A DNA stretch of 64,000 nucleotides, taken from positions 1-64,000 of IMG/VR virus record IMGVR_UViG_3300035670_000067; one strand, written 5' to 3'. Positions 27,094 through 53,742 of the stretch are shown here, one piece after another. The notes below the pieces were generated by a model. It searched no databases and had not been told where the DNA came from. It worked only from the letters and a program-made list of their open reading frames with translations. Position 1 is the stretch's first letter. Each line of letters starts with the position of its first letter. Source of the stretch: a virus. A program made the translations under genes and the position numbers.

Positions 27094-30000
27094 TCATTCG
27101 TCTATAATTTGCGAAGAAGTTTCGCTAACTGCCGTAGATGATGATGATGAAGATGAAGACGCATCGGCTAAAAGATAGGGTTGGAATGCCGTCGCAGGTG
27201 GCGTGAAGTCAGAAGTGTAGCGGGCAATTCCCTTTGATAATCTCAACTCTTCGAAATACGCATTAGCGTAACTGCTATTTTCGCCACTTTGGCCAATGAA
27301 CAAAGGGCACCCATCACTGGAGAAATCGCCGTCAGCGAACGTGCCGATAGACGCGCCATCTACGTAGTTCGTTACTGTGGAGCCACTGCGCACAAGTGCG
27401 ATATGATACCACGTATTCAAGCTCGGGCTCCACGACAGAAAACGCGAAGTGCCTGAGCCGGTGTAGAGGTACATCTGCGCACCGCCGGCGTAGTAGCCGA
27501 ACTGCCATCCTTTGGTGCCATCTCCTGTGCCATCATGCGCGCAAATGAAGGTGTTAGCGTTAGCCTTAAGCAATAACCAAAATTCTAATGTAAAATCACC
27601 ATTTCCAGCAGTACCTAAATCCCAATCTGTACTATTGGGAATACTTAAATCATCACCTGTCCCATCAAGATAACAGCTTGCTCCGCCGAACTTACAAAGA
27701 TTAACAATCTTCACGTCACCATTAGGCGTTATGGTATGACCAGTGATTCCCGAATCTGTAAATGTTGTAGAATTTTCAGCTCCTTCAAAATGTAATAATA
27801 AAGTTGTATTAGCATCAGAAGTAAAAGCTGTAGTAGAAGGAGTAAAATTAGAAGTATATCTTACATTAGTACTAATTCTAAATTCATCAACATATCCATT
27901 AAGAGGATAATCTGTTCTAAAACCAATTCTTAATCCTTGACTATATGAAGAACCAAGATCTGCTGTATATGCTCCATCTTCTAAGGTTTTAGATTTAGAA
28001 TCTCCATCGATAAATGTATACCATGTATTTCCATTTCTAACTATAGCAATATGATACCATGTATTGGTTGATGGAGTGAATGATACTGAATATTGAATGT
28101 CATATGCTGTACCATTATAACTCATAAAATATAATTTATGATTAGTATTATCATAAAGTGTTGTCATTGATGGATGTACACTATTCAAACAGCTCCAAAG
28201 ATGAGTATCTCCTAAAACATTCCATTTAACATAAAATTCTACAGTAAAATCTGAAGTTCCGTGTGGGAAATCTGTTGCACTATATGGAGTACTTAAATAA
28301 TCTCCATCTCCATCAAAATATCCAGCACCATTATCAATTTTCGCAGTATGAACAATCTTAGCATCTCCGCCAGGAGTCACAGTGTGAGGGGCAGATCCTC
28401 CTAATGCACTGTCTGTAAAAGTAGTCGATCCATCTACACCATCCATATGTAGTAACAGCACAGTATTCGGATCTATTTCAGTATCGTAAGATAGGGATGA
28501 TGATGAAGAGGAAGAAACATCGGATTCGGACGAAGATTCAGATGTTGACGATAGTGACGAAGTTTCGGACGCTTCGGTGGACGACGAAGACGACGACGAA
28601 GACGACGACGAAGACGACGACGAAGATATAGATGTTGATGAGGAGCTTGATTGACTGCTAAGTGAAGATATCGATGTTGATGAAGAGGTCAGACTAGCGA
28701 ATGTCGAGGAACTTGAACTCGACGAAGACAAACTTGTAGAACTAGATGAAGAACTGGCTGAAGAAGTTTCACCAGCTTCAGTCGACGAAGAAGAACTGGA
28801 TGAACTCGACGAACTAAATGAAGAGCTTGAAGATTGTGAAGTCGAACTGTAGCTGCTCAGACTACTCAACGACGAAGAAGACCAACTTGAAAATTCTCGC
28901 GAAGAAGCTGTTGATGAACTCGACCAACTCGAATATTCTTGTGAAGTTAGGCTAGATGATGAACTACTTTCCTCACCAAATGGATCTATTTCTTTTATTT
29001 TCAGTATACCACTTTTCAGAATCTTTGATCCATGACCCACACCGGTCTTACCATCTATTTCTCCAACGACTGTTGAAGTAATAGCCCCACTGCCGCCATT
29101 GGTATACATGTTAAAGTGGTCCACATCATATATTTCAGCCTTCTTGTGCTTCCATTGAAGCACTGCTGATTTGCCAGAAGTTTTTCTTGTCTTATTGAAA
29201 ACAAACTTTTGATGGGGGATGGCGTACACGTCTATGTCAAATATACTATCTGGATCTCCAATATATACATCATATTGATTAGATTGACATTCTGCAACTT
29301 TATCATCATTTACATAGAGCGCATACCACTGTTCTAATTGATCTTCTGTCCAATCAGAACTAGTTACTAAATCCCACAAAACGCGAATATATCCGGTTCT
29401 ATTTCTTAACCATTTCCAATATTGATTGGATGGTTCAAACTGGATTCTAGCATGATGTATTGAAAGTTCATTTCTATAACTATCACTAGTGACATAGAGA
29501 GTTGCTACGTCGTCAGCGCTATAGGCATAATGTGATTCTATACGCATCTTCAGCCATATGCCAATAGATTCGCCAGACGCTAAACTTCCGATATAGAAAG
29601 AATATTCTGAAGAAGATGAACTGGACGACGATGATGAAGATGAAGAACTAGATGCTGAAGTGCTAGACAGACTTGATGATGAAGATATCGAATAAAACGA
29701 TTCTATAAGATCTTCAGATGTCAATGATGTTTCAGATGTCGAAGATGAAAGGCTGCTCACATCATCGGCAGAACTCGATTCCGAACTGCTACTGGTTCGA
29801 TATTCTGAACTGGCCGAGCTTCTACTTGAAGTCGATAAAGTCGAAGATGATGAACTTGAAAATGATGAACTTTCCGAAGCTAATGTGGATGATGATGAAT
29901 GACTTGACACACTGCTCGAAGCTGAAATAAATGTTGAAGATGAAGATGATGTTACTCCAGCTTCTGTAGATGATGTTGAATCTGCAACACTAGATGTAGA

Positions 30001-31993: not shown

Positions 31994-32812
31994 TTAACAC
32001 TGCAAGCTCATTTGGAATTGCAGATCATATAGCAATGTTCCAGAACCATTACCTTCAGAATCTTTGCCGCCATTACTTGTGCCAGTGTTTAATCCTGTCA
32101 TTATCACATTCTCATATGTATTTCCATTCAAGAATAATGTCCCGATCTTACCCAGAGGTCCACAACTACAAAGATAGTTGAACATATAGGCCTCTTTGTG
32201 TTGTACTGAAGTATGCGCCAGCCAGCAACTTAGGGCTATAGTAACAATACCATCGTTCAAATTGGATACAGGCGCATTCGTTCTGAATTTTCTTGGTCTT
32301 GACAATTGTGAAAATGATACGGGCATCGCAGCTTCCCAGTTATTGTAGAATCTAAATCTAAATTCACTAAAGGACTGGTCTTTATCTTGATACTTATATT
32401 GAAAATAACCATCTCTGACTTGCGTCGTGCTGGGCTGAGCCTGCATGAAGTTTTGGCTATCGGAAAGTATGAAATCTAAACTGTATCGAAAATATTGATT
32501 ATGAGTCATAACGTCAAAATCTACAGATGCTGGCACTACATCTTGATACGTGTTATCGTTTACGATTAAATTGGCTCTGCTATGCTTGGCGACTTCTTCG
32601 CCAAGATTGTAATGCAGAGCTTCTATCTCTGTCTTTGTCTTATTGGCTATATGCCACGAACAGTCTATGGTGATCCTTCTATCTACTTCGTCAGATGGTT
32701 TTAGCAGAGCGCCTATCGCTCTGGGGAATGTTAATGATATCGGATTGCTAGAACCGGAAAATGCGACGTTCGTTATGTGAGATATTCTGACCCCTCCAAG
32801 AATAGCTGACAT
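31994..32812 (-). CDS. Putative distal tail protein
   Basis: Immediately follows tape measure; two internally similar beta-rich halves. Confidence 0.5.
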   Translation of the reverse strand: MSAILGGVRISHITNVAFSGSSNPISLTFPRAIGALLKPSDEVDRRITIDCSWHIANKTKTEIEALHYNLGEEVAKHSRANLIVNDNTYQDVVPASVDFDVMTHNQYFRYSLDFILSDSQNFMQAQPSTTQVRDGYFQYKYQDKDQSFSEFRFRFYNNWEAAMPVSFSQLSRPRKFRTNAPVSNLNDGIVTIALSCWLAHTSVQHKEAYMFNYLCSCGPLGKIGTLFLNGNTYENVIMTGLNTGTSNGGKDSEGNGSGTLLYDLQFQMSLQC

Positions 32813-35800
32813 TATGCAACACTCCAGACATCGCCAGTGCCAGCGTTATCGAAGACACTCACACCACCTCTTTTCCCAGCAACTGCCCCTCTATTTTCTT
32901 CTCTAAGTCTGCGCATAGCGTTTAGCATACCAGTTTCAACAGCTTGCGCAGTTTCTTTCTGTGTCGCTTCTCCGCCCCTAACTGTAAGCGGATCAGGCGA
33001 AATATTGAGCTGTTTCTGTATCTCGCCGATTAACCCTTCCCAAGTTCCCTGCCCCTGTATAGCTCTTTCCTTATAATCAACCTTACCAAACGCTGCTTCT
33101 ATCTTGTCAACTTGTGATCTAACGTATGCATCTCTGGCGGCAGCATCTTGAATCTCAGCAGCATTCGCTGCGACTTCTTTCATGTATCTGTTATAAACAG
33201 TGCGAGAAGCTTTTGTTATTTGAGAAGCTGTCCAATTAGTCTTGGGGAGACCACCAGTGAATGTCTGTCCAGCATATGTTCCACTTCGCGCTGCTCTTTG
33301 AGCTTTCTCAGCTATTGACTGTCTTCTGGTTTTTTCATAATCATGAATATCTGTTAAGACTTGAGCCTTATTGCCAGCAGCACCGGCGGCTCTCGCTGCT
33401 CCAGCTTGCCCGCTAAGATAGTCTAAAATCTTTTCGCCATATTCTTTCAGTGTATCGGTGACTTGACCGATGCTATTTTCTATAGCTTGAGCAGCAATCT
33501 CAGCATTGTCTTTAAGTAACTTTTCATTTTCTTTTATCTTGTCAGCAACTCTAGCACGTTCTCTCTTGACTGCGTCAGAAGCGTTTTTGGTATTAGGATC
33601 AAAGAATTGATCTGCATTCGCAAAAAGATTTTTTAATACTTCTGGCGTCGCCTTATCAAACCTTACATCTAATCCGAATTTTTTTGCTATATCCAAAGAG
33701 GCCGCTTGCAGCATAGTGTCAAACGCGAACATAGCCGGAGACGTGTATTTTAAAATATTCCAGATCAATTGGAAAATTCCATATAATGCATACGCTGTCG
33801 TCACGATAGACTTCAATCCATTATAAACACTTCTAACTCCATCCATTATAGTTGTGATAACTTTATTGTCGCTATTCAATATCCAATCAAATATCTGTAA
33901 TATGATATCATATATCTTATACAACGCGATTGTTCCAGCAACTAAAAACGTCTCCCACAACCATTTCATAGCTGACACAGTTTCGCCAGAAAATATAGAA
34001 TTCTTCATTAAAGCTCCGATATCGAATGAAGCTATCAGAACTCCAATCTGAGATAATAACCAGATTAATCCTAATGACGCATAAGTCAACGCTTTGTTTA
34101 TAGCGAAAACGATCATGCTGTAAATTTCTTGTCCGAATCTTTTCAATTTATCTACACTATACATATCGCCTCTAAATATACCAACGAACACGTTCTTTAT
34201 TTTTTCGCCAATCGTAAGTATTTTCAACAATGCGTCTGAGACTATTCTGGCAAACATAATGATATAATTTGTATCGCCCATTTTCATCATACTGGTGAAA
34301 AATTTATAGATATCCATAAGTTTAGACTTTATCTTTTCTATGACTTGAGGATCGAACATCGTACCATGCACTAATGATTTCACCGCTTCCAAGAATTTCT
34401 CGAAAGAAGCTTTCATGAAATCAACCACTGGTCTGAGTACCACTAAGGCTTTACCAAATCTTTCGATTATAGATTCTATTCTGGACGATGTCAGAATTTT
34501 TCCTAATTCTTTCCAATATGACATCATCTTATTGGAAAAAACTGTCGCAGATAAAAGTTTATCAAGCAACTTAGCGAATGACAATTTCGCAACATTTATT
34601 GTTTCATTGATTCTCGCTAACTTACTTTGCATCGTGTTTAGCGCCATCCCAACCTGTGCAGAAACAGATTTTTCAAGTTTTTCAAACTCTTGACGCATCT
34701 GCGCTATTTCTTCAATCGCACCCTTCTTACTAAAGATACCAAATGCTCTACGAGCTTGCACCAAGCCGAAAACTTTAGATAATTTTTCAACTGGGATTTT
34801 ACCCAGTTGTTGAATCATCTGAGCGAATCCTTCACCAAATCCGCGCTTCTTTGTTACATCCTGTATTTTATTCATATCCAAGCCAAGAGCTTCCATCTCT
34901 TTCCTGGCTTTACTCGAAGGTCTATAAACAGCTTCTGCGAATCTCTGCATATATTTACTGCTAGTCCCGGCAGAACCTCTGCCAAATGCGCGAGTCAGAT
35001 ACGCCAACTGTATCGCGGCTTCTCTAGCAGGAACACCTAATGATTCGAGAATAGAAGCTGCAGATGACAATGCTGGACCATACTCTTGCAGTGTAGTAAC
35101 GCCTAAGGTCGTACCAGCATTCAATATTCTGCCAGCTTCAGCAGCATCTTTCAATTGACTCTTATAAGCGTTGAAGAAAGTTACCAATGAATTTGTCGCT
35201 TCGCCCAAGTCTGACATATCACCCATCGCCAACTGTACTGAAGCTCTCAGAACATCAAGCGCTTCTTTCTGAGTACGAAACCCTGATGACAATGTATTGA
35301 ACATCGCTTCGTTTATAGCTTCAAACGACATACCAGTTCTATACATCATTTTTTGAACTGCTGTCATCACCCACTGGAATTTAGTTCCATAGATATCAAT
35401 TACTTCTTGTGCGGCCTTAACAGCACCTCTTTCAAACGAAACAAATAACACAAGACTGTCGTTAGCGAATTTAGCGATACTTTCTAAGATATTATTCATT
35501 GACATCCGTGTCAATGCAGCAAGCCCCTTCCAGAAAGAAGACCAAATTTCTTTTATGACTCTCACAGATCCCTTAACTATAGCGCCAATAATTCTAAATC
35601 CAGCAGTCAACACATCACCGATGACTTTCATGGATTTAGTAACTATATCAATAACTTCTTCAAATATGAGTTGAATACGTCCAGCAATTACTTGTATTGT
35701 GGATATTACTCCCATGACAACTAATGTGATACCGGCCATCACCGCAGCACCAATCGCTGTGCCGCCACCTGGACCGCCAGCTAATGTCCCGATAATACCA

Positions 35801-36855
35801 CCGATTAAACCTGAAGCAAGTGTATAACCGATACCCCTTATTGCACCGCCAACCGAAACCGCCAACTTTCTTAAACTGAATGTCAAGAAATTGAAAAACA
35901 TTTCGGCGATTGTTCCTGCGGCTCTACCTAAATCGCCAGCGACTGCGCTAACAGTGTCGCCAAAGATACTACCAACCGTAGAAGCAATTGATCCAACGGC
36001 GGCTCTGGCAGATCCTGATGTTCTTGACTGCAACGCCATCTGTTGCATTTTAGTACCGATATCAATAGCAGTAAAACCAAGAGCGCCACCCAGTTCTAAT
36101 GCCCCCTGTCTAACTGTATTACGTATCATATCTCTTCGTTGTTTTAGTACCTTGGCTCTTTCTCTAAATTGAGAACGCATAGTTCTCTGATATGCGGAAT
36201 TAGCTTTAGCTCTTAACCGCTGAACTCTTAATTCTTCTGCTATATCTCCACCAACAATTCCAGTTTGACCAGCTAATTTGCCAGACGCAGAACGAACATA
36301 GTTATTTGCTATTTCGCGAACTTCTTTTATAGAGCGTCCGTATTTATGCATACCGGCAGCAGCTTTATCCATATTAACTACTGATATTTTAGCTAAAGTG
36401 TCTCTCATCGGCTGCAGATATTTGTTTGCATTCAGCGCAGAAACACCAGCCTGCTTCAATTTAAGTGAAAGAGCGGCAATTTTCATATTATATGAATGCA
36501 TTACCCTAACTTTAGCAGAATTCATAATTGACGCCATAGTTCTAGATATACTATCGCCAGTTTGCCTAAAACTTCTGGAAGTTTTAGCGGAAACACTACG
36601 CAAATTCCCATATCTATTCTGAAGTAATCTTATCGTCCCACTGTAATCCCCAAGCTTCTTATCTGCTCTTTCAGCAGACTTCACCAAAGCATCTACATCT
36701 GCTTTAGTAAGTGTAAACCCCTTACCGGAAGTCTTACGAATTTTTTCTAATTCTGCGCGTAAATCAGCCGCAGTACCAACTAATTTAGCGATCTGCTTCT
36801 GAGAGTTGCCGGTCTTTATGCCAAGAACAAATCTTATTTCTCGTTCTCTGGCCAT
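32812..36855 (-). CDS. Tail tape measure protein
   Basis: 1347 aa, helical Ala/Gly-rich, TP901-type core (EAMFNTLSSG..AVYRPSSKARKEMEALG), hydrophobic Gly-rich stretch. Confidence 0.9.
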   Translation of the reverse strand: MAREREIRFVLGIKTGNSQKQIAKLVGTAADLRAELEKIRKTSGKGFTLTKADVDALVKSAERADKKLGDYSGTIRLLQNRYGNLRSVSAKTSRSFRQTGDSISRTMASIMNSAKVRVMHSYNMKIAALSLKLKQAGVSALNANKYLQPMRDTLAKISVVNMDKAAAGMHKYGRSIKEVREIANNYVRSASGKLAGQTGIVGGDIAEELRVQRLRAKANSAYQRTMRSQFRERAKVLKQRRDMIRNTVRQGALELGGALGFTAIDIGTKMQQMALQSRTSGSARAAVGSIASTVGSIFGDTVSAVAGDLGRAAGTIAEMFFNFLTFSLRKLAVSVGGAIRGIGYTLASGLIGGIIGTLAGGPGGGTAIGAAVMAGITLVVMGVISTIQVIAGRIQLIFEEVIDIVTKSMKVIGDVLTAGFRIIGAIVKGSVRVIKEIWSSFWKGLAALTRMSMNNILESIAKFANDSLVLFVSFERGAVKAAQEVIDIYGTKFQWVMTAVQKMMYRTGMSFEAINEAMFNTLSSGFRTQKEALDVLRASVQLAMGDMSDLGEATNSLVTFFNAYKSQLKDAAEAGRILNAGTTLGVTTLQEYGPALSSAASILESLGVPAREAAIQLAYLTRAFGRGSAGTSSKYMQRFAEAVYRPSSKARKEMEALGLDMNKIQDVTKKRGFGEGFAQMIQQLGKIPVEKLSKVFGLVQARRAFGIFSKKGAIEEIAQMRQEFEKLEKSVSAQVGMALNTMQSKLARINETINVAKLSFAKLLDKLLSATVFSNKMMSYWKELGKILTSSRIESIIERFGKALVVLRPVVDFMKASFEKFLEAVKSLVHGTMFDPQVIEKIKSKLMDIYKFFTSMMKMGDTNYIIMFARIVSDALLKILTIGEKIKNVFVGIFRGDMYSVDKLKRFGQEIYSMIVFAINKALTYASLGLIWLLSQIGVLIASFDIGALMKNSIFSGETVSAMKWLWETFLVAGTIALYKIYDIILQIFDWILNSDNKVITTIMDGVRSVYNGLKSIVTTAYALYGIFQLIWNILKYTSPAMFAFDTMLQAASLDIAKKFGLDVRFDKATPEVLKNLFANADQFFDPNTKNASDAVKRERARVADKIKENEKLLKDNAEIAAQAIENSIGQVTDTLKEYGEKILDYLSGQAGAARAAGAAGNKAQVLTDIHDYEKTRRQSIAEKAQRAARSGTYAGQTFTGGLPKTNWTASQITKASRTVYNRYMKEVAANAAEIQDAAARDAYVRSQVDKIEAAFGKVDYKERAIQGQGTWEGLIGEIQKQLNISPDPLTVRGGEATQKETAQAVETGMLNAMRRLREENRGAVAGKRGGVSVFDNAGTGDVWSVA

Positions 36856-38493: not shown

Positions 38494-39828
38494 TCAATCC
38501 TTCAAATACACTAAATCCAAATATGACTGCAATTCGATCATAGAATTTTCCCATGTCCTCCACACAACCGATGCATATCTATTGTCTATTTCTAAACGCT
38601 GTTCGGCAGTGCCGCGTTCTTCATAAACCTGATTCATTTTGTCTCCAAGTTCCTGAATATCACCAAATCCCATTTCTTCTCCCTCATAATAGGCCGAAGT
38701 CCCGACAGCCAATTTATCGTCGCATCTTCTATATGAAACTTCTTTACACAAATATCTCGCACCCTCCATATATTCCATATAACCACAACATTCATTATTC
38801 AATTGAATGATTGGCTTTTTCATAGCTCCTAATTCTAATCCAGGAAGCCAAGTAGATTCACCACTAGAGAATCCAACCAAACAATCTATACGAGAATACA
38901 CATGAGGCAACACTTCTGGATGAATTGGTACGTCTAATACTGAAATATGAGGTAACTTGTTTGCTGGCAACCCTAGCTTGGCAATGCAGGCATTTAGTTC
39001 AAGCCTTATTGACCATTTAGATCTATCCTCTTGATACTCTCCATAAGGCCGATTGCCATACTTGCAGACCAGCAGAAGGCTAACAGGATCATCTTTTGTA
39101 AACGTATTACAATAGGCTTGAACGATTTCTTCAACACCCTTCCTATAGTTCCAGCTTCCCACCACACCAAATACATATCTGTTACGAAGAGACACAATAT
39201 CAATTGGCGTAATTCCAGGGTGAAATAATTTCCCATCATAACCTATCCTCACTGTTGCTAATTGGGACTTAACTCCCGATTCTTTAAATCTGCGATAATC
39301 TATTTCTGTGGGGCATAAGATAAGATTCGCGTTATTACACCATTCCACAAGTCTAGGTTGCATCCTTCTAGTCTCGATCATAGTCCAGCCTATTACAATT
39401 CTATCAGTTGGCAAGAATTCTTTCTGTAGATGTCCAGGACCAGCTATAACAAGGAATATAGATTTACTAATATCAAAACACGGATTATTCACATACCATT
39501 GCAATCTACTAAACAATGCTGGATGAATATCAATTGGTGATTTTATTGGCGAAAGTTTGATATCATATAATCCAGTCTTTTCAAGACCAAATATCACTTC
39601 TCTTGTGTGCCCAGCATACCCACCATAGAAATCAACATAACCTCTAATATGCAGATTTCTCTTTTTAGCTCCAACGAAATCATTGACCAAAAACGGTCTG
39701 GCTAACGCACCTTCTGACGTCAATACATTTCCAATATCTAATGGACATAGATTCATCTCTTCAGCAACTGGATTAGAACAAGTATCACTATTGTTAGATT
39801 TATCTTTTTTTGCCCTTATCATGGCCAC
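38494..39828 (-). CDS. GT4-like glycosyltransferase inside the tail module
   Basis: GGYAGHTRE, WTMIET, VGSWNYRKGVEEI, FSSGESTWLPGLELGAMKKPII. Confidence 0.85.
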   Translation of the reverse strand: MAMIRAKKDKSNNSDTCSNPVAEEMNLCPLDIGNVLTSEGALARPFLVNDFVGAKKRNLHIRGYVDFYGGYAGHTREVIFGLEKTGLYDIKLSPIKSPIDIHPALFSRLQWYVNNPCFDISKSIFLVIAGPGHLQKEFLPTDRIVIGWTMIETRRMQPRLVEWCNNANLILCPTEIDYRRFKESGVKSQLATVRIGYDGKLFHPGITPIDIVSLRNRYVFGVVGSWNYRKGVEEIVQAYCNTFTKDDPVSLLLVCKYGNRPYGEYQEDRSKWSIRLELNACIAKLGLPANKLPHISVLDVPIHPEVLPHVYSRIDCLVGFSSGESTWLPGLELGAMKKPIIQLNNECCGYMEYMEGARYLCKEVSYRRCDDKLAVGTSAYYEGEEMGFGDIQELGDKMNQVYEERGTAEQRLEIDNRYASVVWRTWENSMIELQSYLDLVYLKD

Positions 39829-40316
39829 TCATCCTCGGTTCCATATCTGCTTTGGTAATCTTCATCCTTTGCTGAGACCACGAGAGAAAAATTCATAAAT
39901 CCACAATACTTCTCAAATTGATTTGAATATCTGAATTCTCTTTGTGTTCTCAAGCACTTGGCTACATACAAACCATAATTGCTAGGACTGTTTACTTCGC
40001 ATAATTGTTGTGGACGTTTATTTAAAATATTTTCTATCTCGTCCATTATCTTACTAGCGGTCGTCCTAGGATTCTTATCCGTCTTTTCAACCCACACATA
40101 AAATCCTATAGAAGCGTGTTCTGCTGGCAACTTTTCTTCAGCATTTTCTATCACGTAATCGTAACATATCTGTGGATATCTATTGCCGATAGGATTGCCG
40201 TCACTTGGATGTATTTCTATATTACCATTCTGGTCTTTTGCCAGCAGTTTCACCAAAATTGGCGATAATTCAAGGACTAATGGAATCTTTGCTTCTATTT
40301 TGATTGCTGTTGGCAT
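39819..40316 (-). CDS. Putative tail terminator/completion protein
   Basis: YPQICYD..IGFYVW..ASKIMDEIENILN pattern and position. Confidence 0.55.
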   Translation of the reverse strand: MPTAIKIEAKIPLVLELSPILVKLLAKDQNGNIEIHPSDGNPIGNRYPQICYDYVIENAEEKLPAEHASIGFYVWVEKTDKNPRTTASKIMDEIENILNKRPQQLCEVNSPSNYGLYVAKCLRTQREFRYSNQFEKYCGFMNFSLVVSAKDEDYQSRYGTEDEWP

Positions 40317-40936
40317 TATTCACCGACTTGTTGAAGTATTAGCCTCGGGATTTCTTCCAACATTCTTTTCTCTGCCAATTCTAAAGATTTATCCATCCAC
40401 TGATATCCTGGTGCAATCTTTGATACAGAAGTAGTAAACACAACACCATATTTTTCTGAGCCTGCTTTCTGCGCGTTCAGCCAAGTTGAAGTGCTAGTAT
40501 ATCTTAACTCATTATCTATGTATCTTTGGCGAAATTTGCCTCTTAATCTATTGTATGGAATAGCAAGTGCGTATGGATGTTTGTAAGATCTTGGAGGCAG
40601 CGCTTTTCTACCATACTGTTCTATGATCAATGGGAAAAACGCTTCCATGACTGATTCGGATAAAATGATTCTTGATGTCAATTTATTATTTTCTATTCTT
40701 AAGCTTACACCAGCACCAATTTTGGGATTTGTAATTTTTCTATTCTCAGATTTTAACTTATCAACTATACCTGCATATTTCCTAGTCGCTGGACTACGCA
40801 TCAAAACCGTTTTGAGTGACTGTCTTAAAATCTTTGGTCCATTAGCATTAATGACATTAATACTCTTTTGGACTTTCTTCAAAAGAACCTTACTTAATTT
40901 TGTTTCAAATTCTTTCGTTGATAAATTATTACGCAT
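40316..40936 (-). CDS. Putative neck/tail-completion protein (HK97 gp10-like)
   Basis: Basic protein, IIEQYG and PGYQWMDKSL motifs, position after head closure. Confidence 0.45.
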   Translation of the reverse strand: MRNNLSTKEFETKLSKVLLKKVQKSINVINANGPKILRQSLKTVLMRSPATRKYAGIVDKLKSENRKITNPKIGAGVSLRIENNKLTSRIILSESVMEAFFPLIIEQYGRKALPPRSYKHPYALAIPYNRLRGKFRQRYIDNELRYTSTSTWLNAQKAGSEKYGVVFTTSVSKIAPGYQWMDKSLELAEKRMLEEIPRLILQQVGE

Positions 40937-43070
40937 TGGCGAAATTCACTTCTTCTATACGTTCAGCGTTTACTTCCAAATGATGTCCTCTACCTGCCGC
41001 GTCATTGACGTGAACAACTCTAAATATAATTCCTTCTTCGCTTGTCATCGAACTTGATTCGCTCGCTTCAGAAGAGGAAGATGTGCTCAAAAATGTTGAG
41101 GAGCTCGAGCTGAATGAACTTGTTGAAGAACTGGAACTTCTAGTAGAACTGCTTGAAGAAGAAGAATAACTGTACGGTGTACTCAATTCTAACGTGCTCA
41201 GCGATGTTGAGCTATCAGATGATGATGTAGATTCAATTACACTACTGGACGATGAAGACGACTGTGAAGAAGTCGAAGATGATGAAGACGACTGTGAAGA
41301 ATCTGATGACTGAGAAGTTGGCGATGACGAACTACTAGACGATGATTCTTGCAGAAGCGTGGATGATGACGACGAAGATGTTTCTGACGCTTCGGTTGAC
41401 GAAGACGAAGACGAAGACGATGACGTTTCAGATGCTTCGGTTGACGAAGACGAAGACGAAGTTGATGACGAAGACGATGATAAAGACGAAGATGTTTCCG
41501 ATGCTTCGGTTGATGAAGAAGATAACGAAGTTGATGACGAAGACGAAGACGAAGACGATGACGTTTCAGATGCTTCGGTTGACGAAGACGAAGACGATGA
41601 CGAAGAAGTTTCCGATACTTCTGTTGATGAAGAAGATAGCGAAGTTGATGATGAAGACGAAGACGAAGACGATGACGTTTCAGATGCTTCGGTTGACGAA
41701 GACGAAGACGAAGACGAAGAAGTTTCCGATACTTCAGTTGATGACGACGAAGAGGATGACGAAGACGTTTCCGATACTTCTGTTGATGAAGAAGATAATG
41801 AAGTTGATGAAGATGATGACGAAGACGAAGATGATGTTTCCGACGCTTCGGTTGATGATGACGAAGATGAAGAAGAAGATGTTTCAGATGCTTCGGTTGA
41901 CGAAGACGATGACGAAGACGATAACGAAGACGATGACGTTTCAGATGCTTCGGTTGACGAAGACGAAGATGAACTACTTAAAGACGTAGAACTACTCGAA
42001 GACGACATTTCAGGTCCTTCTTCTTCAATGTCGCCAGATTCCATATTTACAGCTATTAAATCCGCGTTCCCCATAGTGTCTGGAATAGTGGGGAAAGAAG
42101 TAATATCATCAAATCTATACCAAGAATAAATATTAGCAAACTTTGGATGAGATTCTAGATTTTTTGGTCTACCGTCATTCCATATAAGAGCAACATCTGA
42201 TCCAGCTTTAGCGAATTCTCCTAAAGCTATTTCTTTATTTGAAATATAACCATCATCAAGATTTGTGTGCCAAAACACATAATCATCAAGATAGTAAGCA
42301 CCGCCAGAAACGGTGGCTGAAAGAAATTTAGATATTGATGTTCTAGAAACAACCGGTAGTGAAAAATCATTAGGAGTTGCCGTATACCCAATCAGCTTAT
42401 TATCTTCATATATTCTTATATCTTTTCCAGGATTGAATACACAAATAACACAATGCCATCTTCTATCATCGATGAAATTTGATTGATGTATGGAAGATGC
42501 AGTAAGATATAATTTGTTTTGCTGATTTCTACAATAAACTTGCCATATAGCACCAGGACCTGAATCAACTATCATTCGAATTCTAACGAAAATATCGCCC
42601 CAATTAGCTAAATTGACTAAGATTTGACTGAGAGCATATTGATTTAGATCTAAACCATCCCATCTCCACCAACATGAAATGGACCATCCAGAATTTGGAA
42701 AAAAAGAAACTGGAGGATTAGTCCCCACAAAATTGATAGATTCATCCACACCATCTAATCTTATTGCTTTTTGATTGCCGTAACTTGATGACGATGACCA
42801 ACTTGAAAACTCTATCGAAGATTCACCAATACTGCTTGAAGACCAAGAATTGAACTCTGCGCTTGTTGAAGTGCTAGATGTCGAGCTTCTTGACGATGAT
42901 GAAGAAGAACTGAATGAGCTATATTCTCGTGAAGTAAGAGAAGAAGATAATGAAGTTGATGAAGATGATGAAGATGATGAAGAGCTAAATGAATTGTATT
43001 CTCTTGAAGATATTGAAGAAAAACTTTGCGAATTTTCTGTACTACTCGATGAAGAAATATCTACAGACAT
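40929..43070 (-). CDS. Ser-rich LamG protein ending in the C-terminal strands of a head-closure protein
   Basis: Ser tract, LamG (RLDGVDESI..DRRWHCV..YLDD..WYRFD), ~320-aa Ser tract, then IFRVVHVNDAAGRGHHLEVNAERI. Confidence 0.75.
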   Translation of the reverse strand: MSVDISSSSSTENSQSFSSISSREYNSFSSSSSSSSSSTSLSSSLTSREYSSFSSSSSSSRSSTSSTSTSAEFNSWSSSSIGESSIEFSSWSSSSSYGNQKAIRLDGVDESINFVGTNPPVSFFPNSGWSISCWWRWDGLDLNQYALSQILVNLANWGDIFVRIRMIVDSGPGAIWQVYCRNQQNKLYLTASSIHQSNFIDDRRWHCVICVFNPGKDIRIYEDNKLIGYTATPNDFSLPVVSRTSISKFLSATVSGGAYYLDDYVFWHTNLDDGYISNKEIALGEFAKAGSDVALIWNDGRPKNLESHPKFANIYSWYRFDDITSFPTIPDTMGNADLIAVNMESGDIEEEGPEMSSSSSSTSLSSSSSSSSTEASETSSSSLSSSSSSSSTEASETSSSSSSSSSTEASETSSSSSSSSSSTSLSSSSTEVSETSSSSSSSSSTEVSETSSSSSSSSSTEASETSSSSSSSSSSTSLSSSSTEVSETSSSSSSSSSTEASETSSSSSSSSSSTSLSSSSTEASETSSSLSSSSSSTSSSSSSTEASETSSSSSSSSSTEASETSSSSSSTLLQESSSSSSSSPTSQSSDSSQSSSSSSTSSQSSSSSSSVIESTSSSDSSTSLSTLELSTPYSYSSSSSSSTRSSSSSTSSFSSSSSTFLSTSSSSEASESSSMTSEEGIIFRVVHVNDAAGRGHHLEVNAERIEEVNFANA
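41370..41975 (-). repeat. Tandem coding repeat (STEASETSSSSSSSS units)
   Basis: gtttcagatgcttcggttgacgaagacgaagac repeated more than 10 times with variants. Confidence 0.9.
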
Positions 43071-43348
43071 TATTCACCTGTCAAATCAATAAGTTGGTCA
43101 TTGTTATGCCATTGCATCAGCTGTGGAAATATCTCGCTGTAAGAATATCTATCCCATTGACTAAATTCTTCAGGCAGCAAATGCGGATTAGCTGAGTAAT
43201 GTTTAGTCACCTTTATAACTGTTAATCCAGTCTTTGTTCTTATACAATCACCAATATTCTTTTCAACTATTATTCCAGCATCCATGTATTCTTGAACTTT
43301 ATTCCAATTTTCTTGGAATGATGTATCAACTATGAAATAGATATTCAT
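43070..43348 (-). CDS. Small protein, possible LamG-fibre partner/chaperone
   Basis: Overlaps neighbours on both sides (ATGA and TAATG); YFI..R.KTG..VIK..P..L..YSYSEI..L..W pattern recalled from small genes beside LamG fibres. Confidence 0.55.
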   Translation of the reverse strand: MNIYFIVDTSFQENWNKVQEYMDAGIIVEKNIGDCIRTKTGLTVIKVTKHYSANPHLLPEEFSQWDRYSYSEIFPQLMQWHNNDQLIDLTGE

Positions 43349-44058
43349 GACGAGCTACTCCCACTGGTTGATGAAGATGATGAATTTGTTACGCTACTAG
43401 ACGATGACGATGATGATGAACTGTGAGAGCCATATCCGCTACTGGTACTTGAAGATTCAGAACTTGAAGAACTACTAGAAGCGGAAGAAGTGGACTCTGT
43501 TGCATAACCTATACTTGTGGAAGAACTTGAGCTAGAACTTCTAGAAGATTCACTAGATGAAGAACTCAGTGAGCTCGTGCTAGATAATGAACTAGTTGAA
43601 GACCAGCTTTGTGAAGTGCTCAGTTCTCTGCTCGAACTTGAATAAGAACTAGATGAACTTGATGAACTACTAGAAGAAGATGAACTTGAAGATGACCAGC
43701 TCGAAAATTCTATTGATGAACTACTTGAAGACGAACTTGACGAACTACTTGAAGAAGAACTAAATGAACTATACTCTTCATCTTCATCACCATATGCATA
43801 TTGCTGATGTACTCTTATGAAATCCCCATCTCTGATATTCGTGCCATAATCAAAGAAAAACAAGTATCTGGATTTCGATAAGTTCCCAGCATCCCCGCCT
43901 TCAGCTAAACTTGGAATTTCTTCTTGTTCAAATGTACATATTACATTTCTTGCGACAGTCACTAGCTTACGAATACGTTCTCCATATTCATTGCGCGTAC
44001 CAAGATCGCGCAATCTGAGTATCGAACATTTTCGTATTAGTAACCCTTGGAAACTCAT
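43345..44058 (-). CDS. Head-closure (SPP1 gp16-like) N-terminal part fused to a Ser-rich tail
   Basis: LLIRKCSILR..NEYGE..VARNVICTF..YLFFFDYGTNIRDGDFIRV followed by ~140 aa of poly-Ser. Confidence 0.7.
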   Translation of the reverse strand: MSFQGLLIRKCSILRLRDLGTRNEYGERIRKLVTVARNVICTFEQEEIPSLAEGGDAGNLSKSRYLFFFDYGTNIRDGDFIRVHQQYAYGDEDEEYSSFSSSSSSSSSSSSSSSSIEFSSWSSSSSSSSSSSSSSSSSYSSSSRELSTSQSWSSTSSLSSTSSLSSSSSESSRSSSSSSSTSIGYATESTSSASSSSSSSESSSTSSGYGSHSSSSSSSSSSVTNSSSSSTSGSSSS

Positions 44059-44723
44059 ACTGCTTCGTATACGAAACTGTTGAATTGAGGCAACAGAGAA
44101 AACAGATACTCAATATATTGATCCAAACTCATTCGTGTTGAATCGCTGGTCGTCCTGCCAGCTAACACGTAACGGTATTTGCCTATCTCTTCTTCAAGTA
44201 TATCACCCTTGGCATATACAGATGGATTTAATCTAGCCATTGTTCTATTGATTATGCAAAGCTGGAGCAAGGACAATATTGATGCAGGTGAAGATGTTCC
44301 AAATGTCCCAACGATTTTTATATTCCTTATCCCCTTGGGGAAAACGCCAGCTTCTTCGTCATTGCCATATTCTATGTTATCTATAGGATTTATAATTTCT
44401 ATCTTACCAGTGTTAGGTTCATACCAGATTTCTCTTGTCGCACTTGTCTGCGTCACATTTACACTTGTCTCGGCCAAATCTTCTCCAATAAGCGTCATGG
44501 AAACCAATGAAACTATGGGAATTGGAGTTACGAATAGATGCTTAGTCCCGTCGCCATCAAAGTATAATGTCTGTTCTATTGCTTCCCAAGTAAATCCAGA
44601 TTTTTGCGTAATTTCTTCGTAAGACGCACTTCTTATGAGAGTAGGTATATCACTAATACTAAAACTAGGATTCAATATCCTAAAATATTCTGCGATTTGA
44701 TCATCTGTCAGAAAATCGGCCAC
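44055..44723 (-). CDS. Head-tail adaptor/connector
   Basis: FDGDGTKHL..PIVSLVSM..FPKGIRNIKIVGTFG..EEIGKYRY. Confidence 0.75.
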   Translation of the reverse strand: MADFLTDDQIAEYFRILNPSFSISDIPTLIRSASYEEITQKSGFTWEAIEQTLYFDGDGTKHLFVTPIPIVSLVSMTLIGEDLAETSVNVTQTSATREIWYEPNTGKIEIINPIDNIEYGNDEEAGVFPKGIRNIKIVGTFGTSSPASILSLLQLCIINRTMARLNPSVYAKGDILEEEIGKYRYVLAGRTTSDSTRMSLDQYIEYLFSLLPQFNSFVYEAV

Positions 44724-44732
44724 GCTTCACCT

Positions 44733-45737
44733 CTATTCGTTAGGCTTAGTATCTGTCTTTTGACCGACTTTCTGACGCTTTTCCCATTCTTCGAATTTAC
44801 TTTCTGGCTTGCAATACAATCCCCTAGTGGGTTCGTTCGCTATATCACCCAATCCATCTGTCGCATAAGCAACAGCTTCTTCAAATGGGACATGATCGAA
44901 AACTTTCAATTCAGATTTTTCATTGCAATTGTATATCTTTAATCCAACAGCATCAAAGTGTGGCTTCAGCTGTGGAAAATATTCTTCTCGCATTCTCTTG
45001 TATGTATTCAAGTTACAATTGACAGCGCCCTTGTCGCGGCCTTCATCGAAATGATAGGTATTTGTTTCGCTCATATTAAGATCAACGCCAAGCAAGAATA
45101 TAGTTCTAAATCCAAGCAAGAACAATATCCTAATGGCCGGCAATATCACACTTCTACCACCGCCATAGTCTTCAGCATTCCCCCAATTAAGAGTATCTTC
45201 CCAAAGCCATCTATTGGCGTGGAATTTACTATTCCTCTTGAAATAGTACACGTTAGGGACATCGCCAACATTACAATCCAACGGACAATCGTTATAGTTG
45301 TCCCACAATGGTTTGTCTACCGCTCCTATCGGAACGAATTTCATAATCTTAGGATCAACCCAAATAGAACGAATAAATCTAGATGGATCATCAACACTGA
45401 TCCACGCATCTGGCCTATATGTTCTTGGACTATTGTTTAATCCTAGAGTCCAACAATTCTTCAATTTGGTCAAATCAAGAAGTTTGAAGCTTGGGCCGCC
45501 CGCTATGAGGAACGCCGTTGCGCCTTTGTAGTGCCCCAGTAAGGCGTTTGCAGTGTTCCCTTCTCTTGTCCAGAAGAAAGGCATTGGCTGAAACCATTCT
45601 TTTTCATAGGTGTGGCCCAGCCATAACTTTCTGTCTTTGATCATTTCATAAGCGCGGCCATCTCGCATACGAGAATCGTCTTTTCTGTCGCGCTTCAGCC
45701 CACGCTCACAGACATTGTTCATTTTCTTTGGCTTCAT
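44733..45737 (-). CDS. DUF115/Maf (Cst-like) glycosyltransferase
   Basis: AFLIAGGPSF, TLGLNN, ISVD, SVILPAIRILFLLGFRTIFLLGVD, KIYNCN..SELKVF. Confidence 0.7.
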   Translation of the reverse strand: MKPKKMNNVCERGLKRDRKDDSRMRDGRAYEMIKDRKLWLGHTYEKEWFQPMPFFWTREGNTANALLGHYKGATAFLIAGGPSFKLLDLTKLKNCWTLGLNNSPRTYRPDAWISVDDPSRFIRSIWVDPKIMKFVPIGAVDKPLWDNYNDCPLDCNVGDVPNVYYFKRNSKFHANRWLWEDTLNWGNAEDYGGGRSVILPAIRILFLLGFRTIFLLGVDLNMSETNTYHFDEGRDKGAVNCNLNTYKRMREEYFPQLKPHFDAVGLKIYNCNEKSELKVFDHVPFEEAVAYATDGLGDIANEPTRGLYCKPESKFEEWEKRQKVGQKTDTKPNE

Positions 45738-50065: not shown

Positions 50066-51052
50066 TTAGAAGGAGACTGTCGTGCTCAGATTGTCGATCT
50101 CGCAGGTCATATCTGTCCGATTGAACTGGAAGGCGATACGCTCACTGGTAACGTACTTCCGCTGATCGGATTCGATGACTTTATCAGATTCGAGTTTGAT
50201 GCGCCGACGATCACCAATCTCGCAGGCTTCACGATGCATGACCACCGCGTGACCTGACGGAGCGTTAGCGAGTTCGTACACACGAACGCCATAGATGGTG
50301 GTCAGCATACCATCTGACTCACCAGCTGAGCCAAGACCAGTGATGAAGCTCGCCAGAGCCAGACCAGTCATGCTCGTGTTTTTGAAGTTGGTGTTTGACC
50401 GAATATTCGCAGCCTGATCGGGAGGAACGATGCAGATCAGACGGCTCTTGTTGCGACCATATTTCCCAAGGTTATAGATCGCGTTATTAACCATGTCTTC
50501 ATCGAAGGCGGCACCACCGCCAGCGACTTCTGACGCACCAGATTCATTGGCAACGGTGAAGATACCGTCAAACGCAAGACGCGAATCACGGATATACCAG
50601 TTGGCGGTTGTCGCGGACTCAGGCGTCGGCGCAGTAGCGGTGTGATCAACATCGCCCTGGAGGAACGCCAGTTCTTCCGCCTCAGCAATAGCATCGGCGA
50701 AGTCCTGCAGAACCTGAGCCACAACGTCAGGCTGAGAATCTTCGATAGCTTCTTCGTCAATCATGACGTAAGCCATCAGTTTCTTAGCCGTCCATGTGAC
50801 TGAAGTCGCCGCATAGCTTGTCAGCGTAGCGGTCGTACCATCAGGAATATAGTACGCTGAACCGCCGCTAGTTCTCTTCGGCTTGGTCCATGTGCGCGAA
50901 GGCATGGTGAATGACGGGACCAGTCTACGAATCAGGTTGCGTTCGCGAACGAACTCGATCACCTGATTCGCCAGAGGCGTCGGAAGATAAGCACTGATGC
51001 TGGACCCAGAGGTCGCAACTGACAGTGCCTTGCGGATAAGCTCGACACTCAT
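50066..51052 (-). CDS. Major capsid protein (HK97 fold)
   Basis: YLPTPLANQVIEFVRE, AKKLMAYVMIDEEAIEDS, AEAEELAFLQGD, TIYGVRV. Confidence 0.92.
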   Translation of the reverse strand: MSVELIRKALSVATSGSSISAYLPTPLANQVIEFVRERNLIRRLVPSFTMPSRTWTKPKRTSGGSAYYIPDGTTATLTSYAATSVTWTAKKLMAYVMIDEEAIEDSQPDVVAQVLQDFADAIAEAEELAFLQGDVDHTATAPTPESATTANWYIRDSRLAFDGIFTVANESGASEVAGGGAAFDEDMVNNAIYNLGKYGRNKSRLICIVPPDQAANIRSNTNFKNTSMTGLALASFITGLGSAGESDGMLTTIYGVRVYELANAPSGHAVVMHREACEIGDRRRIKLESDKVIESDQRKYVTSERIAFQFNRTDMTCEIDNLSTTVSF

Positions 51053-51073: not shown

Positions 51074-52180
51074 TTACTTCTGGGTCGTTGACGCTAACAG
51101 AAGACCAAAGTAAACACTGGTCGCTTTACTCTGCTCTTCCTTGCTTAACGCCGCAAACTCATCAGGATTGCCCTTCAGAGCATTGCCGTCGCCAAGCAGA
51201 TGGAGAACGTATTTGACAGTTTCGGGATCCGAAGCGTCCTTGAGAACTTTCTTGATCTTATTAGGATCGGGCTGTTCTGAGGACTGTTCGCTTTTCTTGC
51301 CAAGCTGGGCGGTGAGAGCGGCAACGCTCTTAACCAGTTCAGCCATGACAGGATTTTCTGTCTCAAATTTCTTCTGCGCAGCGGCTTTCGCAGCATCCGC
51401 TTCCTGTTTCAGTTCTTCAGCTGTCTTGGCTTTCTGAGACAGAGCAGTGATCGCATCAGCAAGCTGTTTCTGCGAAGCAGCAACAGTATCCACAAGCGCT
51501 TTCATCGCAGCAACAGAATCAGCAACAGGCTTAATCTGTTCTGCGACCATTGTCTTCGCCTTTTCCTCAGAAACGCCACTCGGCGTCGGCTGAGGAACTT
51601 TATCGGTCTTGGTGGCCATATGTTTCTCCTTGTTAGAGATCTTGTTTTGCAGTGATTTCCCGGTTGCTTCTAAAATAGAAGCTGCGGGATTTGCTGGTAA
51701 ACCTACAACGCTAACTTCAAAAAGTTCCATTTCTTTGATTCTATACTCAGTAATACTTCCTGTGTCAGGATCTTCCACCCTTTCCACTCTCTTTACACGC
51801 AATCTGATGGACATTGAATTTAGAATACCTTCTTTAATTTTAGTCCAGATATCATCAACATCATTTGCCTTGCTAAACTTCACGGTAACGATAAGACCTT
51901 TATCGTCCACCTCGGTCTTCACAACCTTGCCAACCGGCTTGTCTGTGTCGTGATTGAAGAATACCGTGTTGGCACCGGGCTGTAATAGATCTTTTTCAGA
52001 TTTCTTCCAAGCTTCGAGTGTAATGACGTCACGAACACGATCTTTGACAATAGTACCAGCATATCCAACAAGAATTCTATCACCACCCTTTTCACTCACA
52101 CCCTTTATCTTAAAAAGACTGTCAATAGCTTTATTCACGTCTTTTTCAACAGATTTCTTGATCTTCATTTTCTTTTCCAT
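51074..52180 (-). CDS. HK97-family prohead protease with C-terminal scaffold region
   Basis: GYAGT..DRVRDVI, FFNHD..PVGK, IKEGILNSMSI, LFEVSVVGLPANPAA; Ala/Lys helical tail. Confidence 0.92.
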   Translation of the reverse strand: MEKKMKIKKSVEKDVNKAIDSLFKIKGVSEKGGDRILVGYAGTIVKDRVRDVITLEAWKKSEKDLLQPGANTVFFNHDTDKPVGKVVKTEVDDKGLIVTVKFSKANDVDDIWTKIKEGILNSMSIRLRVKRVERVEDPDTGSITEYRIKEMELFEVSVVGLPANPAASILEATGKSLQNKISNKEKHMATKTDKVPQPTPSGVSEEKAKTMVAEQIKPVADSVAAMKALVDTVAASQKQLADAITALSQKAKTAEELKQEADAAKAAAQKKFETENPVMAELVKSVAALTAQLGKKSEQSSEQPDPNKIKKVLKDASDPETVKYVLHLLGDGNALKGNPDEFAALSKEEQSKATSVYFGLLLASTTQK

Positions 52181-53742
52181 TACTCGCCTAAGAGGTATAG
52201 ATTGCGATAGTGGTTACTTACTTTGACTTCCTTCAAAAGCATATCAATCATAGTAGCTAATTTTTCTTGATTCCCGTCAAAATGCTTTTCACAAATCTTT
52301 AATGTCTGAATAAATCCGTATATGAGTTGTTTTTCTTCATCAGTAAAGGTGGACATAATGGTGTCATTAAAAACATTGTCTGTATTTAGACGCTCTTTTG
52401 CACACTTCACAATCAGAGATAAAGCAGAATCAACAATATCCTTCTTGGGTTTCTGCTGAGTCTGTTGACCACTACCCTGTCTGGAAGGCGGCACTATTCT
52501 GCCAGATGGATCAACTTGCCCACCGCCAGGAAGAATATTAATCGGCGTATCACCCCATGGAACTTTAGACATACCCTTCTTAGCGCGTCTTTCATTAATG
52601 ACTATAACGCCATTTCTAAGATCGTCACTATCTATTCTCCCTTCTGTCTCTGCATCTTCAAGATCGATAGCGCCAAACTCTAACTTTAGATCCATAAAAC
52701 CAAAACCGTCTTCTATGATCTCTTTTGTATAAGCGTAAGCTTCTTTATTCAATATAGGTTTTAGCGCACCATTCTTATAAATGCGAACTTGTTCTGCAGA
52801 ATTCAATTTGCCGGTAGTCTCATCAACTATACCCATGATGAATGGCTGCATCTTGAAAACAGCAAAAATTCTATTTCTTATTTCCTTGCCATATTCAGAG
52901 AATTCCATATCTTTATTATTGAGCGCTATTCTAACCCAACTCAGCTTATCACTATTCGTAATAAATGTCCTATGTGAATTACTTGCCCCCTTAAACTTAG
53001 ATTCCCAGTATTCTCTGAATTTCTTTAATTCTGTTCTGCTTAATCCAGGAACAGTCAAAACACCGCGAGCCTCTGCGCCATTGATAAAATTGTTCGAATT
53101 GTAATTAGCTCTGAGCAGATCTGTTGCCACACTATTCGCGACAACGTCTATTGGCTTTAATCCGTATGGTGTAGAACTCATGGGCAAGATGTTCAGAAGA
53201 ATTATTTCGTCCTTATCAAACTTAGGCGAATCTTCTGTAACGATCCCATTAGAAGTCTGTATGTAAGTATTCTTTTCGTAAAGATTACCACTTTTGTCTG
53301 TTCTTATTTTGATCGAAGCAGATTTTATCGCATAAATTTCTCTAAGAAGTTTCTGCCGCTTAACCTTTTCTATTGTACCGTATCCCCATATCAGAAGATC
53401 ACGTAAGAACTTTTCTCTTATTTCTCTAAACGACTCTTTGTTTAGATTGGGGTCGTTCAAGAATTCTGTGACGACTTCTATACGGCTCTTTACTTTACCA
53501 TCTATCTTTTGGTCTTTGTCCTTAGGCACTATTGACCAATTTGTCTGTGTGCAATCGTCAACTATTCTGTTGATCGTAGCAAACAGCCATTCATTCGCAT
53601 GATATAATTCAAAGGCGTCACTATTACTTACTCTGATGAACATTTCTTGGATAGGTGCGCCACTACGCACAAACCCATCTATTTCGCCAGATGCATCTTT
53701 TATAATCAGCCCGGTCGCTTCTGATAACGTCAGTCTTTTCAT
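52180..53742 (-). CDS. HK97-family portal protein
   Basis: DLLIWGYG, YGLKPID, FINGAEARGVL, DMEF, INERRAKKGMSKVPWGD. Confidence 0.92.
   Translation of the reverse strand: MKRLTLSEATGLIIKDASGEIDGFVRSGAPIQEMFIRVSNSDAFELYHANEWLFATINRIVDDCTQTNWSIVPKDKDQKIDGKVKSRIEVVTEFLNDPNLNKESFREIREKFLRDLLIWGYGTIEKVKRQKLLREIYAIKSASIKIRTDKSGNLYEKNTYIQTSNGIVTEDSPKFDKDEIILLNILPMSSTPYGLKPIDVVANSVATDLLRANYNSNNFINGAEARGVLTVPGLSRTELKKFREYWESKFKGASNSHRTFITNSDKLSWVRIALNNKDMEFSEYGKEIRNRIFAVFKMQPFIMGIVDETTGKLNSAEQVRIYKNGALKPILNKEAYAYTKEIIEDGFGFMDLKLEFGAIDLEDAETEGRIDSDDLRNGVIVINERRAKKGMSKVPWGDTPINILPGGGQVDPSGRIVPPSRQGSGQQTQQKPKKDIVDSALSLIVKCAKERLNTDNVFNDTIMSTFTDEEKQLIYGFIQTLKICEKHFDGNQEKLATMIDMLLKEVKVSNHYRNLYLLGE

Follow-up and report, generated by a model that had tools for sequence, protein, structure and literature searches.

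Stopper (head-closure) proteins of tailed phages are small, essential and highly stereotyped, and we know of no described stopper that is encoded in pieces or that serves as the anchor of a decoration. Can such a protein be divided between two genes and still form one fold? The question is raised by a locus in an uncultured tailed phage with an HK97-type structural module. The locus lies in the first 64 kb (64,000 nucleotides (nt), here called the window) of a linear 110,384-bp virus contig (IMG/VR record IMGVR_UViG_3300035670_000067; CheckV completeness ~76%), where three open reading frames (ORFs A, B and C; Table 1) stand between the genes for the head-tail adaptor and a Neck1-type protein. 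A first-pass annotation, made from the sequence, had proposed that ORF A and the end of ORF C, a Ser-rich protein with a LamG domain, are two pieces of one stopper fold. Relatives, fold prediction and selection all agree with this premise, and it is well supported that the N-terminal piece of ORF A and the tail of ORF C are the N- and C-terminal parts of a single stopper fold, cut in a loop. On balance we lean towards a functional gene in pieces, in which a non-covalently assembled stopper would carry LamG whiskers tethered to the neck on Ser stalks.

The three ORFs are read in three different frames, each downstream ORF being in the -1 frame relative to the preceding one, and are joined by ATGA and TAATG overlaps. 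Coordinates, frames and translations confirmed this layout, which had been described in the first-pass annotation. The stretch of ORF B contains many stops in both other frames, and ORF B is therefore a gene in its own right rather than a frameshifted segment of some larger reading frame. Motifs resembling a Shine-Dalgarno (SD) sequence precede ORF B (GGGAG upstream) and ORF C, and the start context of ORF C (ggtgaataATG) is also present at another gene junction of the same phage. ORF C is open through its unique LamG region of ~260 aa and in frame to the tail, and its stop overlaps the start of the following neck gene. The outer junctions (adaptor stop/closure start and closure stop/Neck1 start) match those of relatives. 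No single polypeptide holds the whole stopper barrel, the halves of which are encoded in two ORFs 2.7 kb apart. A separate internal start at a conserved Met before the tail was considered and is not favoured, as no SD-like motif was seen upstream of it.

ORF A exhibited the sequence expected for the first part of a stopper. Residues 9-89 match the head-tail connector family phrog_615 (positions 15-88 of 117, E 3.3e-5), and ORF A matches positions 1-88 of 125 in a profile built from uninterrupted relatives only (E 8.3e-22). Both matches agree with the earlier description of ORF A as a protein that starts as a gp16-type closure protein and then turns into poly-Ser; Ser accounts for 103 of the 142 codons of the Ser tail. 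An exhaustive search of 1.84 billion proteins, with residues 1-95 as the query, recovered seven relatives. Four of them are small and complete (111-128 aa), with ...G-x-HHLEV-like strands at their C-terminus, and in the other three the N domain is followed by Ser-rich sequence. A tblastn search of cultured phages with ORF A gave no match.

Where are the remaining strands? They had been placed at the end of ORF C in the first-pass annotation, and sequence comparisons find them there. Residues 649-706 of ORF C match phrog_1059 (positions 48-107 of 111, E 0.038), and this match and that of ORF A to phrog_615 are complementary halves of a profile of ~115 residues. The tail (RVVHVNDAAGRGHHLEV) lines up with the C-terminal strands of complete relatives in multiple alignments, and aligned to the profile from uninterrupted relatives by hhalign (positions 102-122 of 126, E 8.2e-5, probability 61%). 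By BLASTP it matched the last 26 residues of P0004, an uninterrupted closure protein (E 0.002). Finally, it is 67% identical to the C-terminal strands of a one-piece closure protein from a related locus, L013 (tblastn E 8e-9).

To place the split in an evolutionary order, syntenic loci were recruited through a conserved glycosyltransferase and the capsid gene as anchors. Uninterrupted relatives, for which the first-pass annotation had suggested a search, were found among them: L006, L018/L021 and L019 each have one uninterrupted closure gene of 114-130 aa directly between the adaptor and Neck1-type genes, and the closure gene of L005 is identical to that of L006. P0004, P0005 and P0008 are further uninterrupted closure proteins (111-130 aa for the uninterrupted set overall). 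Stopper-type connectors are covered by PHROG families 615, 1059, 793 and 501 and by Pfam PF05521. P0006 and P0008 match full-length connector/Hc1 PHROGs (E 2e-6 to 9e-17), PF05521 and PF12206 gave no more than sub-threshold matches on the relatives, and the C-terminus of P0007 did not align to the closure profile. Viral-contig scans with the adaptor, P0003 or the L013 protein, and one genome-contig scan, yielded no new relatives. The closure gene lies between adaptor and Neck1 in the same order in the window, L006, L013, L018 and L019.

The closest relative is L013, whose adaptor (L013:2013-2687) is 45% identical to that of the window, compared to 36% for L006:9327-10001; each of these adaptor homologues is directly upstream of the closure gene of its own phage. 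In L013 the closure gene is a single ORF of 241 aa, which consists of the N domain, an in-frame Ser-rich insertion of ~115 residues at the same site, the linker EASESSSMTSEEG and the C-terminal strands. The Ser tail of ORF A is the counterpart of the first half of this Ser loop and starts similarly, with an EF-x-SW-SSSS punctuation motif, and the end of the last Ser tract of ORF C resembles the far end of the loop. As L013 has a one-piece gene with a Ser loop at the same site, the Ser loop preceded the split. Thus, an evolutionary reading in which one stopper gene was expanded by a Ser loop and later split is strongly supported. Sequence comparison also strongly supports the entry of the cassette into a disordered loop that already existed, a point missed by the first-pass annotation. 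The series from uninterrupted gene to Ser loop to split gene is a record of how an essential gene may be made ready for splitting by a disordered insertion.

The C tail is under purifying selection, with a tighter constraint than the N domain. Between the tails of the window and L013, identity is 67% in amino acids but only 59% in DNA, and the codon differences comprise 20 synonymous and 15 non-synonymous ones. The N domains are 41% identical in amino acids, with 14 synonymous and 39 non-synonymous codon differences. The linker EASESSSMTSEEG (window 40993-41031, minus strand; L013:3278-3316) is identical at 13 of 13 residues, through seven synonymous codon changes. The same linker has low confidence in the structural model of the L013 protein, and may be a conserved binding or modification motif.

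For the one-piece L013 protein, the AlphaFold2 (AF2) model places confident strands at residues 9-21, 27-44, 63-69 and 79-82, and then at 210-218 and 225-233. Residues 91-205 are disordered; the predicted local distance difference test (pLDDT) values are 81-93 for the flanking strands and ~87 for the last two. When searched by structure (VIA, independent of Foldseek), the model gave 100-115 aligned residues across a model span of 1-236 with SF1141 (2kz4, Z 11.3), the phage Milano neck (8fwe_AM, Z 10.7), a gene transfer agent (GTA) protein (6tba_3A, Z 10.5), phiXacJX1 (9lbn_J, Z 10.5), XkdH (3f3b, Z 9.7) and SPP1 gp16 (2kca, Z 6.3). The top Foldseek matches of the model are from the same stopper family, with weak E-values, and the uninterrupted-relatives profile finds XkdH in the PDB (E 8e-5). 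The stopper matches take in strands before and after the loop, and the model resembles solved stoppers at Z 9-11.3 only with both halves present; the last two strands are therefore integral to the barrel. The L013 model contains a beta-barrel core of ~110 residues, with the C-terminal hairpin as part of it, a result for L013 and not for the window fragments. Judged by this model, ORF A alone would be an incomplete domain. The first-pass annotation had named a complete closure fold in the N-terminal ORF as an outcome that would overturn its proposal, and ORF A instead lacks two barrel strands found in all of the matched solved stoppers.

Would the two pieces bind each other? The first-pass annotation had asked for a prediction of the two pieces as a complex. 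With alignments supplied, ORF A (residues 1-95) and the last 45 aa of ORF C scored 0.43, compared to 0.00 for the best of three controls; runs agreed in at least 85% of contacts, and the pLDDT of the partner was at least 56. In calibration, 58 of 80 solved complexes and 2 of 110 mismatched pairs attained the mark; only 7 of the 80 solved complexes, and both of the passing mismatches, did so at scores of 0.60 or less. The pair therefore passes the mark, at a weak grade. Since the pieces are the two halves of one fold, and structures of related stoppers have been solved, the result may come from resemblance to a stopper and not from affinity.

We propose that the stopper gene first took up a long Ser-rich insertion, disordered in the protein, in the loop that connects the GDxxxV strand to the two final strands, a state still preserved as one ORF in L013. 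In the window lineage extra DNA would have entered this loop, bringing ORF B and the start of a Ser-LamG-Ser protein with its own translation start. Both break points lead into disordered Ser tracts, and a cut in the disordered loop would be the least disruptive to the domain, because the loop in L013 already tolerates ~115 disordered residues. Translation of ORFs A, B and C would be coupled. The N fragment (four long strands and a Ser tail) would then accept the C-terminal beta-hairpin of ORF C, rebuilding the barrel non-covalently, and the rebuilt unit would take the place of the stopper beneath the adaptor ring. Should the stopper ring have six subunits, as in SPP1, flexible Ser stalks would hold six LamG domains around the neck. 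We put forward the most specific form of this proposal only tentatively: the virion may contain a two-polypeptide barrel completed by strand complementation, with a hairpin of 30-45 residues as the docking tag of the Ser-stalk/LamG protein at a six-fold neck site. Engineered split beta-barrels and donor-strand complementation resemble such a completion. If the pieces do reassemble, they would be a natural counterpart of engineered split-protein tags. The phage would have gained a neck appendage without evolving a new binding interface, and the hairpin would offer a short peptide tag for displaying cargo at fixed copy number on the phage neck. More generally, the long Ser-rich loops of this phage group could be tolerant landing pads for whole genes and domains, which could enter essential structural proteins there while these keep their function.

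Several points weigh against this proposal. Besides the weak support for binding from the complex prediction, we infer the outward-facing position of the loop from the tolerance of L013 for an insertion of ~115 aa. The homology of the C tail depends on L013 as a bridge and on pairwise and profile alignments of modest significance, and the uninterrupted-relatives profile did not report the tail in a six-frame search of the genome. The selection signal comes from one pairwise comparison and is not assignable to the period after the split. Protein and profile searches found no second closure gene in the 110-kb contig, and an intact copy may lie in the part of the genome beyond this ~76% complete contig. 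Moreover, the split form is known from this single metagenomic contig, with no second instance among 13 related loci, so that it could come from a defective variant or a chimeric assembly. This is the main rival explanation: the split would have arisen where the assembly went wrong in low-complexity DNA that encodes Ser, or would mark a gene disrupted not long ago in a genome that is defective. Ser-coding repeats do occur at several loci of the genome, and the protein collection contains the exact sequence of ORF B but that of neither ORF A nor ORF C. However, no exact repeat of at least 21 nt links the Ser tract of ORF A, or the A/B and B/C junctions, to anywhere else in the contig, and a repeat-mediated mis-join would therefore have no substrate there; the only longer repeats are the tandem units within ORF C. 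Excision by recombination between the Ser tracts of ORFs A and C, by which a one-piece gene would be regained, was likewise rejected, as they share no repeat of at least 21 nt. ORF B is clean and has its own SD-like motif, both junctions are typical stop/start overlaps, ORF C stays open through 260 unique residues and in frame to the tail, and the tail is more constrained than the N domain. Given this, we consider an artefact or a defective gene unlikely.

If the split is real, the N fragment might still act as the stopper by itself, perhaps with its barrel completed by a neighbouring subunit; the C tail would then be a relic, and ORF C a fibre or decoration protein in its own right, anchored elsewhere or unanchored. 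Most of the family signal is in the N piece, and one protein, P0002 (86 aa), ends just after the GDxxxV strand, although its 575-bp contig probably cuts it. In contrast, the last two strands are in the aligned core of every solved stopper matched, and the tail and its 13-residue linker have been kept despite many synonymous codon changes. The gp15 ring of the SPP1 connector is bound by six copies of gp16, whose residues 91-98, close to the C-terminus in the region of the tail, contact gp15 (PMC9701221); by homology the tail peptide probably contributes to adaptor docking too. A stopper made from the N fragment alone is thus improbable. Less probable still is that one polypeptide is restored, either by two successive -1 frameshifts at the ATGA and TAATG overlaps, as the -1 frame of each successive ORF might suggest, or by removal of the insert as an intron or intein. 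A slippery heptamer is present at neither junction, ORFs B and C have start contexts of their own, and an Rfam scan of 40500-44500 gave sub-threshold snoRNA-like chance matches only and no intron family. Neither ORF A nor ORF C has a Pfam match to an intein or Hint domain (E up to 1), in line with the earlier remark that intein motifs are lacking, and there is no Cys/Ser...HN boundary. The break is flanked by Ser tracts and not by IntN and IntC, and the residues before the tail strands are SSSMTSEEG. We therefore continue to prefer a gene that functions in pieces.

What would such a stopper carry? The LamG region of ORF C scored 22.3-22.5 bits against PF13385 (Laminin_G_3; E 1.6e-4), below the cut-off of 27.6. 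It is homologous to 30829-31494, part of a 1632-aa tail protein (28% identity, E 2e-22), and the paralogous domain of that protein passes PF13385 (44.7 bits, E 1.9e-11, profile positions 3-150 of 151). The LamG call of the first-pass annotation is thus supported indirectly, by transitive homology, with the score of ORF C itself under the cut-off. AF2 modelling of this region from a two-row alignment was unusable (pLDDT 36), and queries with the LamG region and the tail among proteins of similar length found no relatives. The domain may bind sugars. The 1632-aa protein (27094-31992, minus strand) is encoded after the tape-measure gene, contains several long Ser tracts and three Laminin_G_3 matches (E 4.8e-35), and its N-terminal Ser-LamG module is a paralogue of that in ORF C. 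ORF B had no Pfam match and no significant PHROG match, and a search of 5.8 billion proteins, confined to one band of lengths, gave no homologue. Its Atlas model is a small alpha/beta fold (predicted template modelling score 0.67), and the fold neighbours are small alpha/beta proteins.

In the long Ser tract of ORF C, 215 of 321 codons encode Ser. Tandem Repeats Finder reported periods of 45, 69, 114 and 159 nt, and the longest exact internal repeat is 63 nt. As all of the periods are multiples of 3, an error in copy number would keep the frame. All six Ser codons are used in the Ser tracts, which points to selection on the protein and not on a DNA repeat. The Ser tracts are probably O-glycosylated by transferases of the phage itself, the genes for which are within the structural module and flank the split locus. 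A homologue of the Maf/DUF115-like transferase (L013:978-1796, 62% identity) was found only in L013, the other phage with a Ser loop; there was none in the capsid-to-tail stretch of L006, L018/L021 and L019, in which the closure genes have no Ser tracts. This pattern, seen in two related lineages, hints that the Maf/DUF115-like transferase may modify the Ser tracts. In L013 the Maf-like protein (L013:858-2000) ends in three tandem copies of a Lys-rich unit, KKEYKEKIAKKEKVAKKKKK.

Mycobacteriophage capsid and tail-tube proteins contain glycosylated Ser/Thr-rich segments. Compared to such glycosylated virion proteins, the tracts here are in or beside a neck protein and not at a capsid C-terminus, and their glycosylation is a prediction; the locus is a further candidate for glycosylation of a virion, from a group of uncultured phages. 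Bacterial serine-rich repeat adhesins likewise have long disordered Ser-rich tracts encoded beside dedicated glycosyltransferase genes (PMC6973325).

The SPP1 gp16-type stoppers (which also include lambda gpFII, PBSX XkdH, SF1141 and the GTA stopper) share their fold with the one-piece relative and their gene position, between adaptor and Neck1, with the split locus. In SPP1 gp16 a channel-closing loop is found at the place of the long loop after strand 2 here. However, known members are single small polypeptides, whereas here the barrel of ~110 residues is divided between two ORFs fused to Ser tracts, and no Pfam model reaches its cut-off on the window pieces. The closest mechanistic precedent, by analogy, would be nrdA of Aeromonas phage Aeh1, likewise an essential phage gene cut by inserted DNA into separately translated polypeptides. 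Aeh1 nrdA is cut by the endonuclease gene mobE, its two polypeptides assemble without splicing, and new tails at the break points participate in assembly (Crona et al. 2011, PMC3045599). In contrast to mobE, a homing endonuclease gene in a gene for an enzyme, ORF B has no endonuclease signature and the target is a virion protein; the cut also falls in a loop that was already disordered, and a LamG domain has been added to one fragment. In fractured genes with split inteins, from phage or metagenomic DNA (Dassa et al. 2009, PMC2677866), a free-standing gene likewise lies between the two ORFs of a broken gene. As there are no intein halves at the break here, covalent rejoining is not expected, unlike in those cases. 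In function, the closest analogues would be the lactococcal collar or neck-passage whiskers, and T4 fibritin is a further collar/whisker decoration. The neck passage structures (NPS) of the lactococcal 936 group are whiskers with terminal knots between head and tail, which are encoded in the morphogenesis module and vary among close relatives (PMC4759559). NPS proteins come from separate genes and bind the assembled neck, whereas in this phage part of the stopper fold itself is presumed to be the anchor.

Table 1. Features of the split stopper locus and of the surrounding structural module, in window coordinates.
Feature	Coordinates	Strand	Remarks
Large terminase	53771-56047	-	
Portal	52180-53742	-	
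Protease	51074-52180	-	
Major capsid protein	50066-51052	-	
Five accessory genes between major capsid protein and adaptor, Maf/DUF115-like transferase among them		-	
Maf/DUF115-like (sialyltransferase-like) transferase	44733-45737	-	phrog_4603 E 1.1e-8; PF01973 28.3 bits, below cut-off
Head-tail adaptor (gp15/gp6-like)	44055-44723	-	phrog_442 E 3e-5; stop overlaps ORF A start (ATGA)
ORF A	43345-44058	-	237 aa
ORF A residues 1-88	43795-44058	-	N-terminal fragment of stopper beta-barrel; last strand GDFIRV
ORF A residues 89-237	43345-43794	-	Acidic patch YGDEDEEY, Ser-rich tail of ~140 aa, stop
ORF B	43070-43348	-	92 aa
ORF C	40929-43070	-	713 aa
ORF C residues 1-95	42786-43070	-	N-terminal Ser tract; resembles N-terminus of 1632-aa tail protein
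ORF C residues ~96-357	42000-42785	-	LamG/concanavalin-A-like domain and conserved C-terminal extension
ORF C residues 358-668	41067-41999	-	Long Ser tract with tandem repeats (STEASETSS units)
ORF C residues 669-713	40932-41066	-	Linker EASESSSMTSEEG and last two stopper strands (IIFRVVHVND...GHHLEVNAERI)
Next neck gene (Neck1/tail-completion position)	40316-40936	-	39% identity to L013:3415-3996
Glycosyltransferase	38494-39828	-	phrog_2170 E 1.6e-10; conserved across the phage group
Tail genes and tape-measure gene	32812-36855 (tape-measure)	-	

Every gene of the region is carried by the minus strand. There is no close cultured phage, the capsid protein yielding partial matches only, at ~30% identity. 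In L006 the gene at the position of the next neck gene matches phrog_5 Neck1 (E 6e-7), and the glycosyltransferase is 42-57% identical in 12 loci. A scan for promoter and terminator consensus sequences gave nothing above chance.

Insertions and low-complexity tracts were also seen elsewhere. In L006, genes for proteins of 145 aa and 544 aa, the longer with an fn3 match, separate Neck1 from the conserved gene that follows (L006:11003-13074), a neck-region insertion that differs from that of the window; the closure gene of L006 is uninterrupted. Residues ~92-239 of the large terminase (~145 aa) are an insertion, the flanking parts being joined directly in the terminases of L003, L018 and L021. 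At 10411-11271 (minus strand) a protein of 286 aa contains an acidic Glu/Ala repeat tract of ~170 aa (EEEEEEAEEAD units), the antisense frame of which reads poly-Ser and accounts for the strong skew at 10-12 kb. Beyond the window, at 89240-89932 of the contig (minus strand), an ORF with a globular N domain of ~100 aa and a Ser tail of ~130 aa has a build like that of ORF A.

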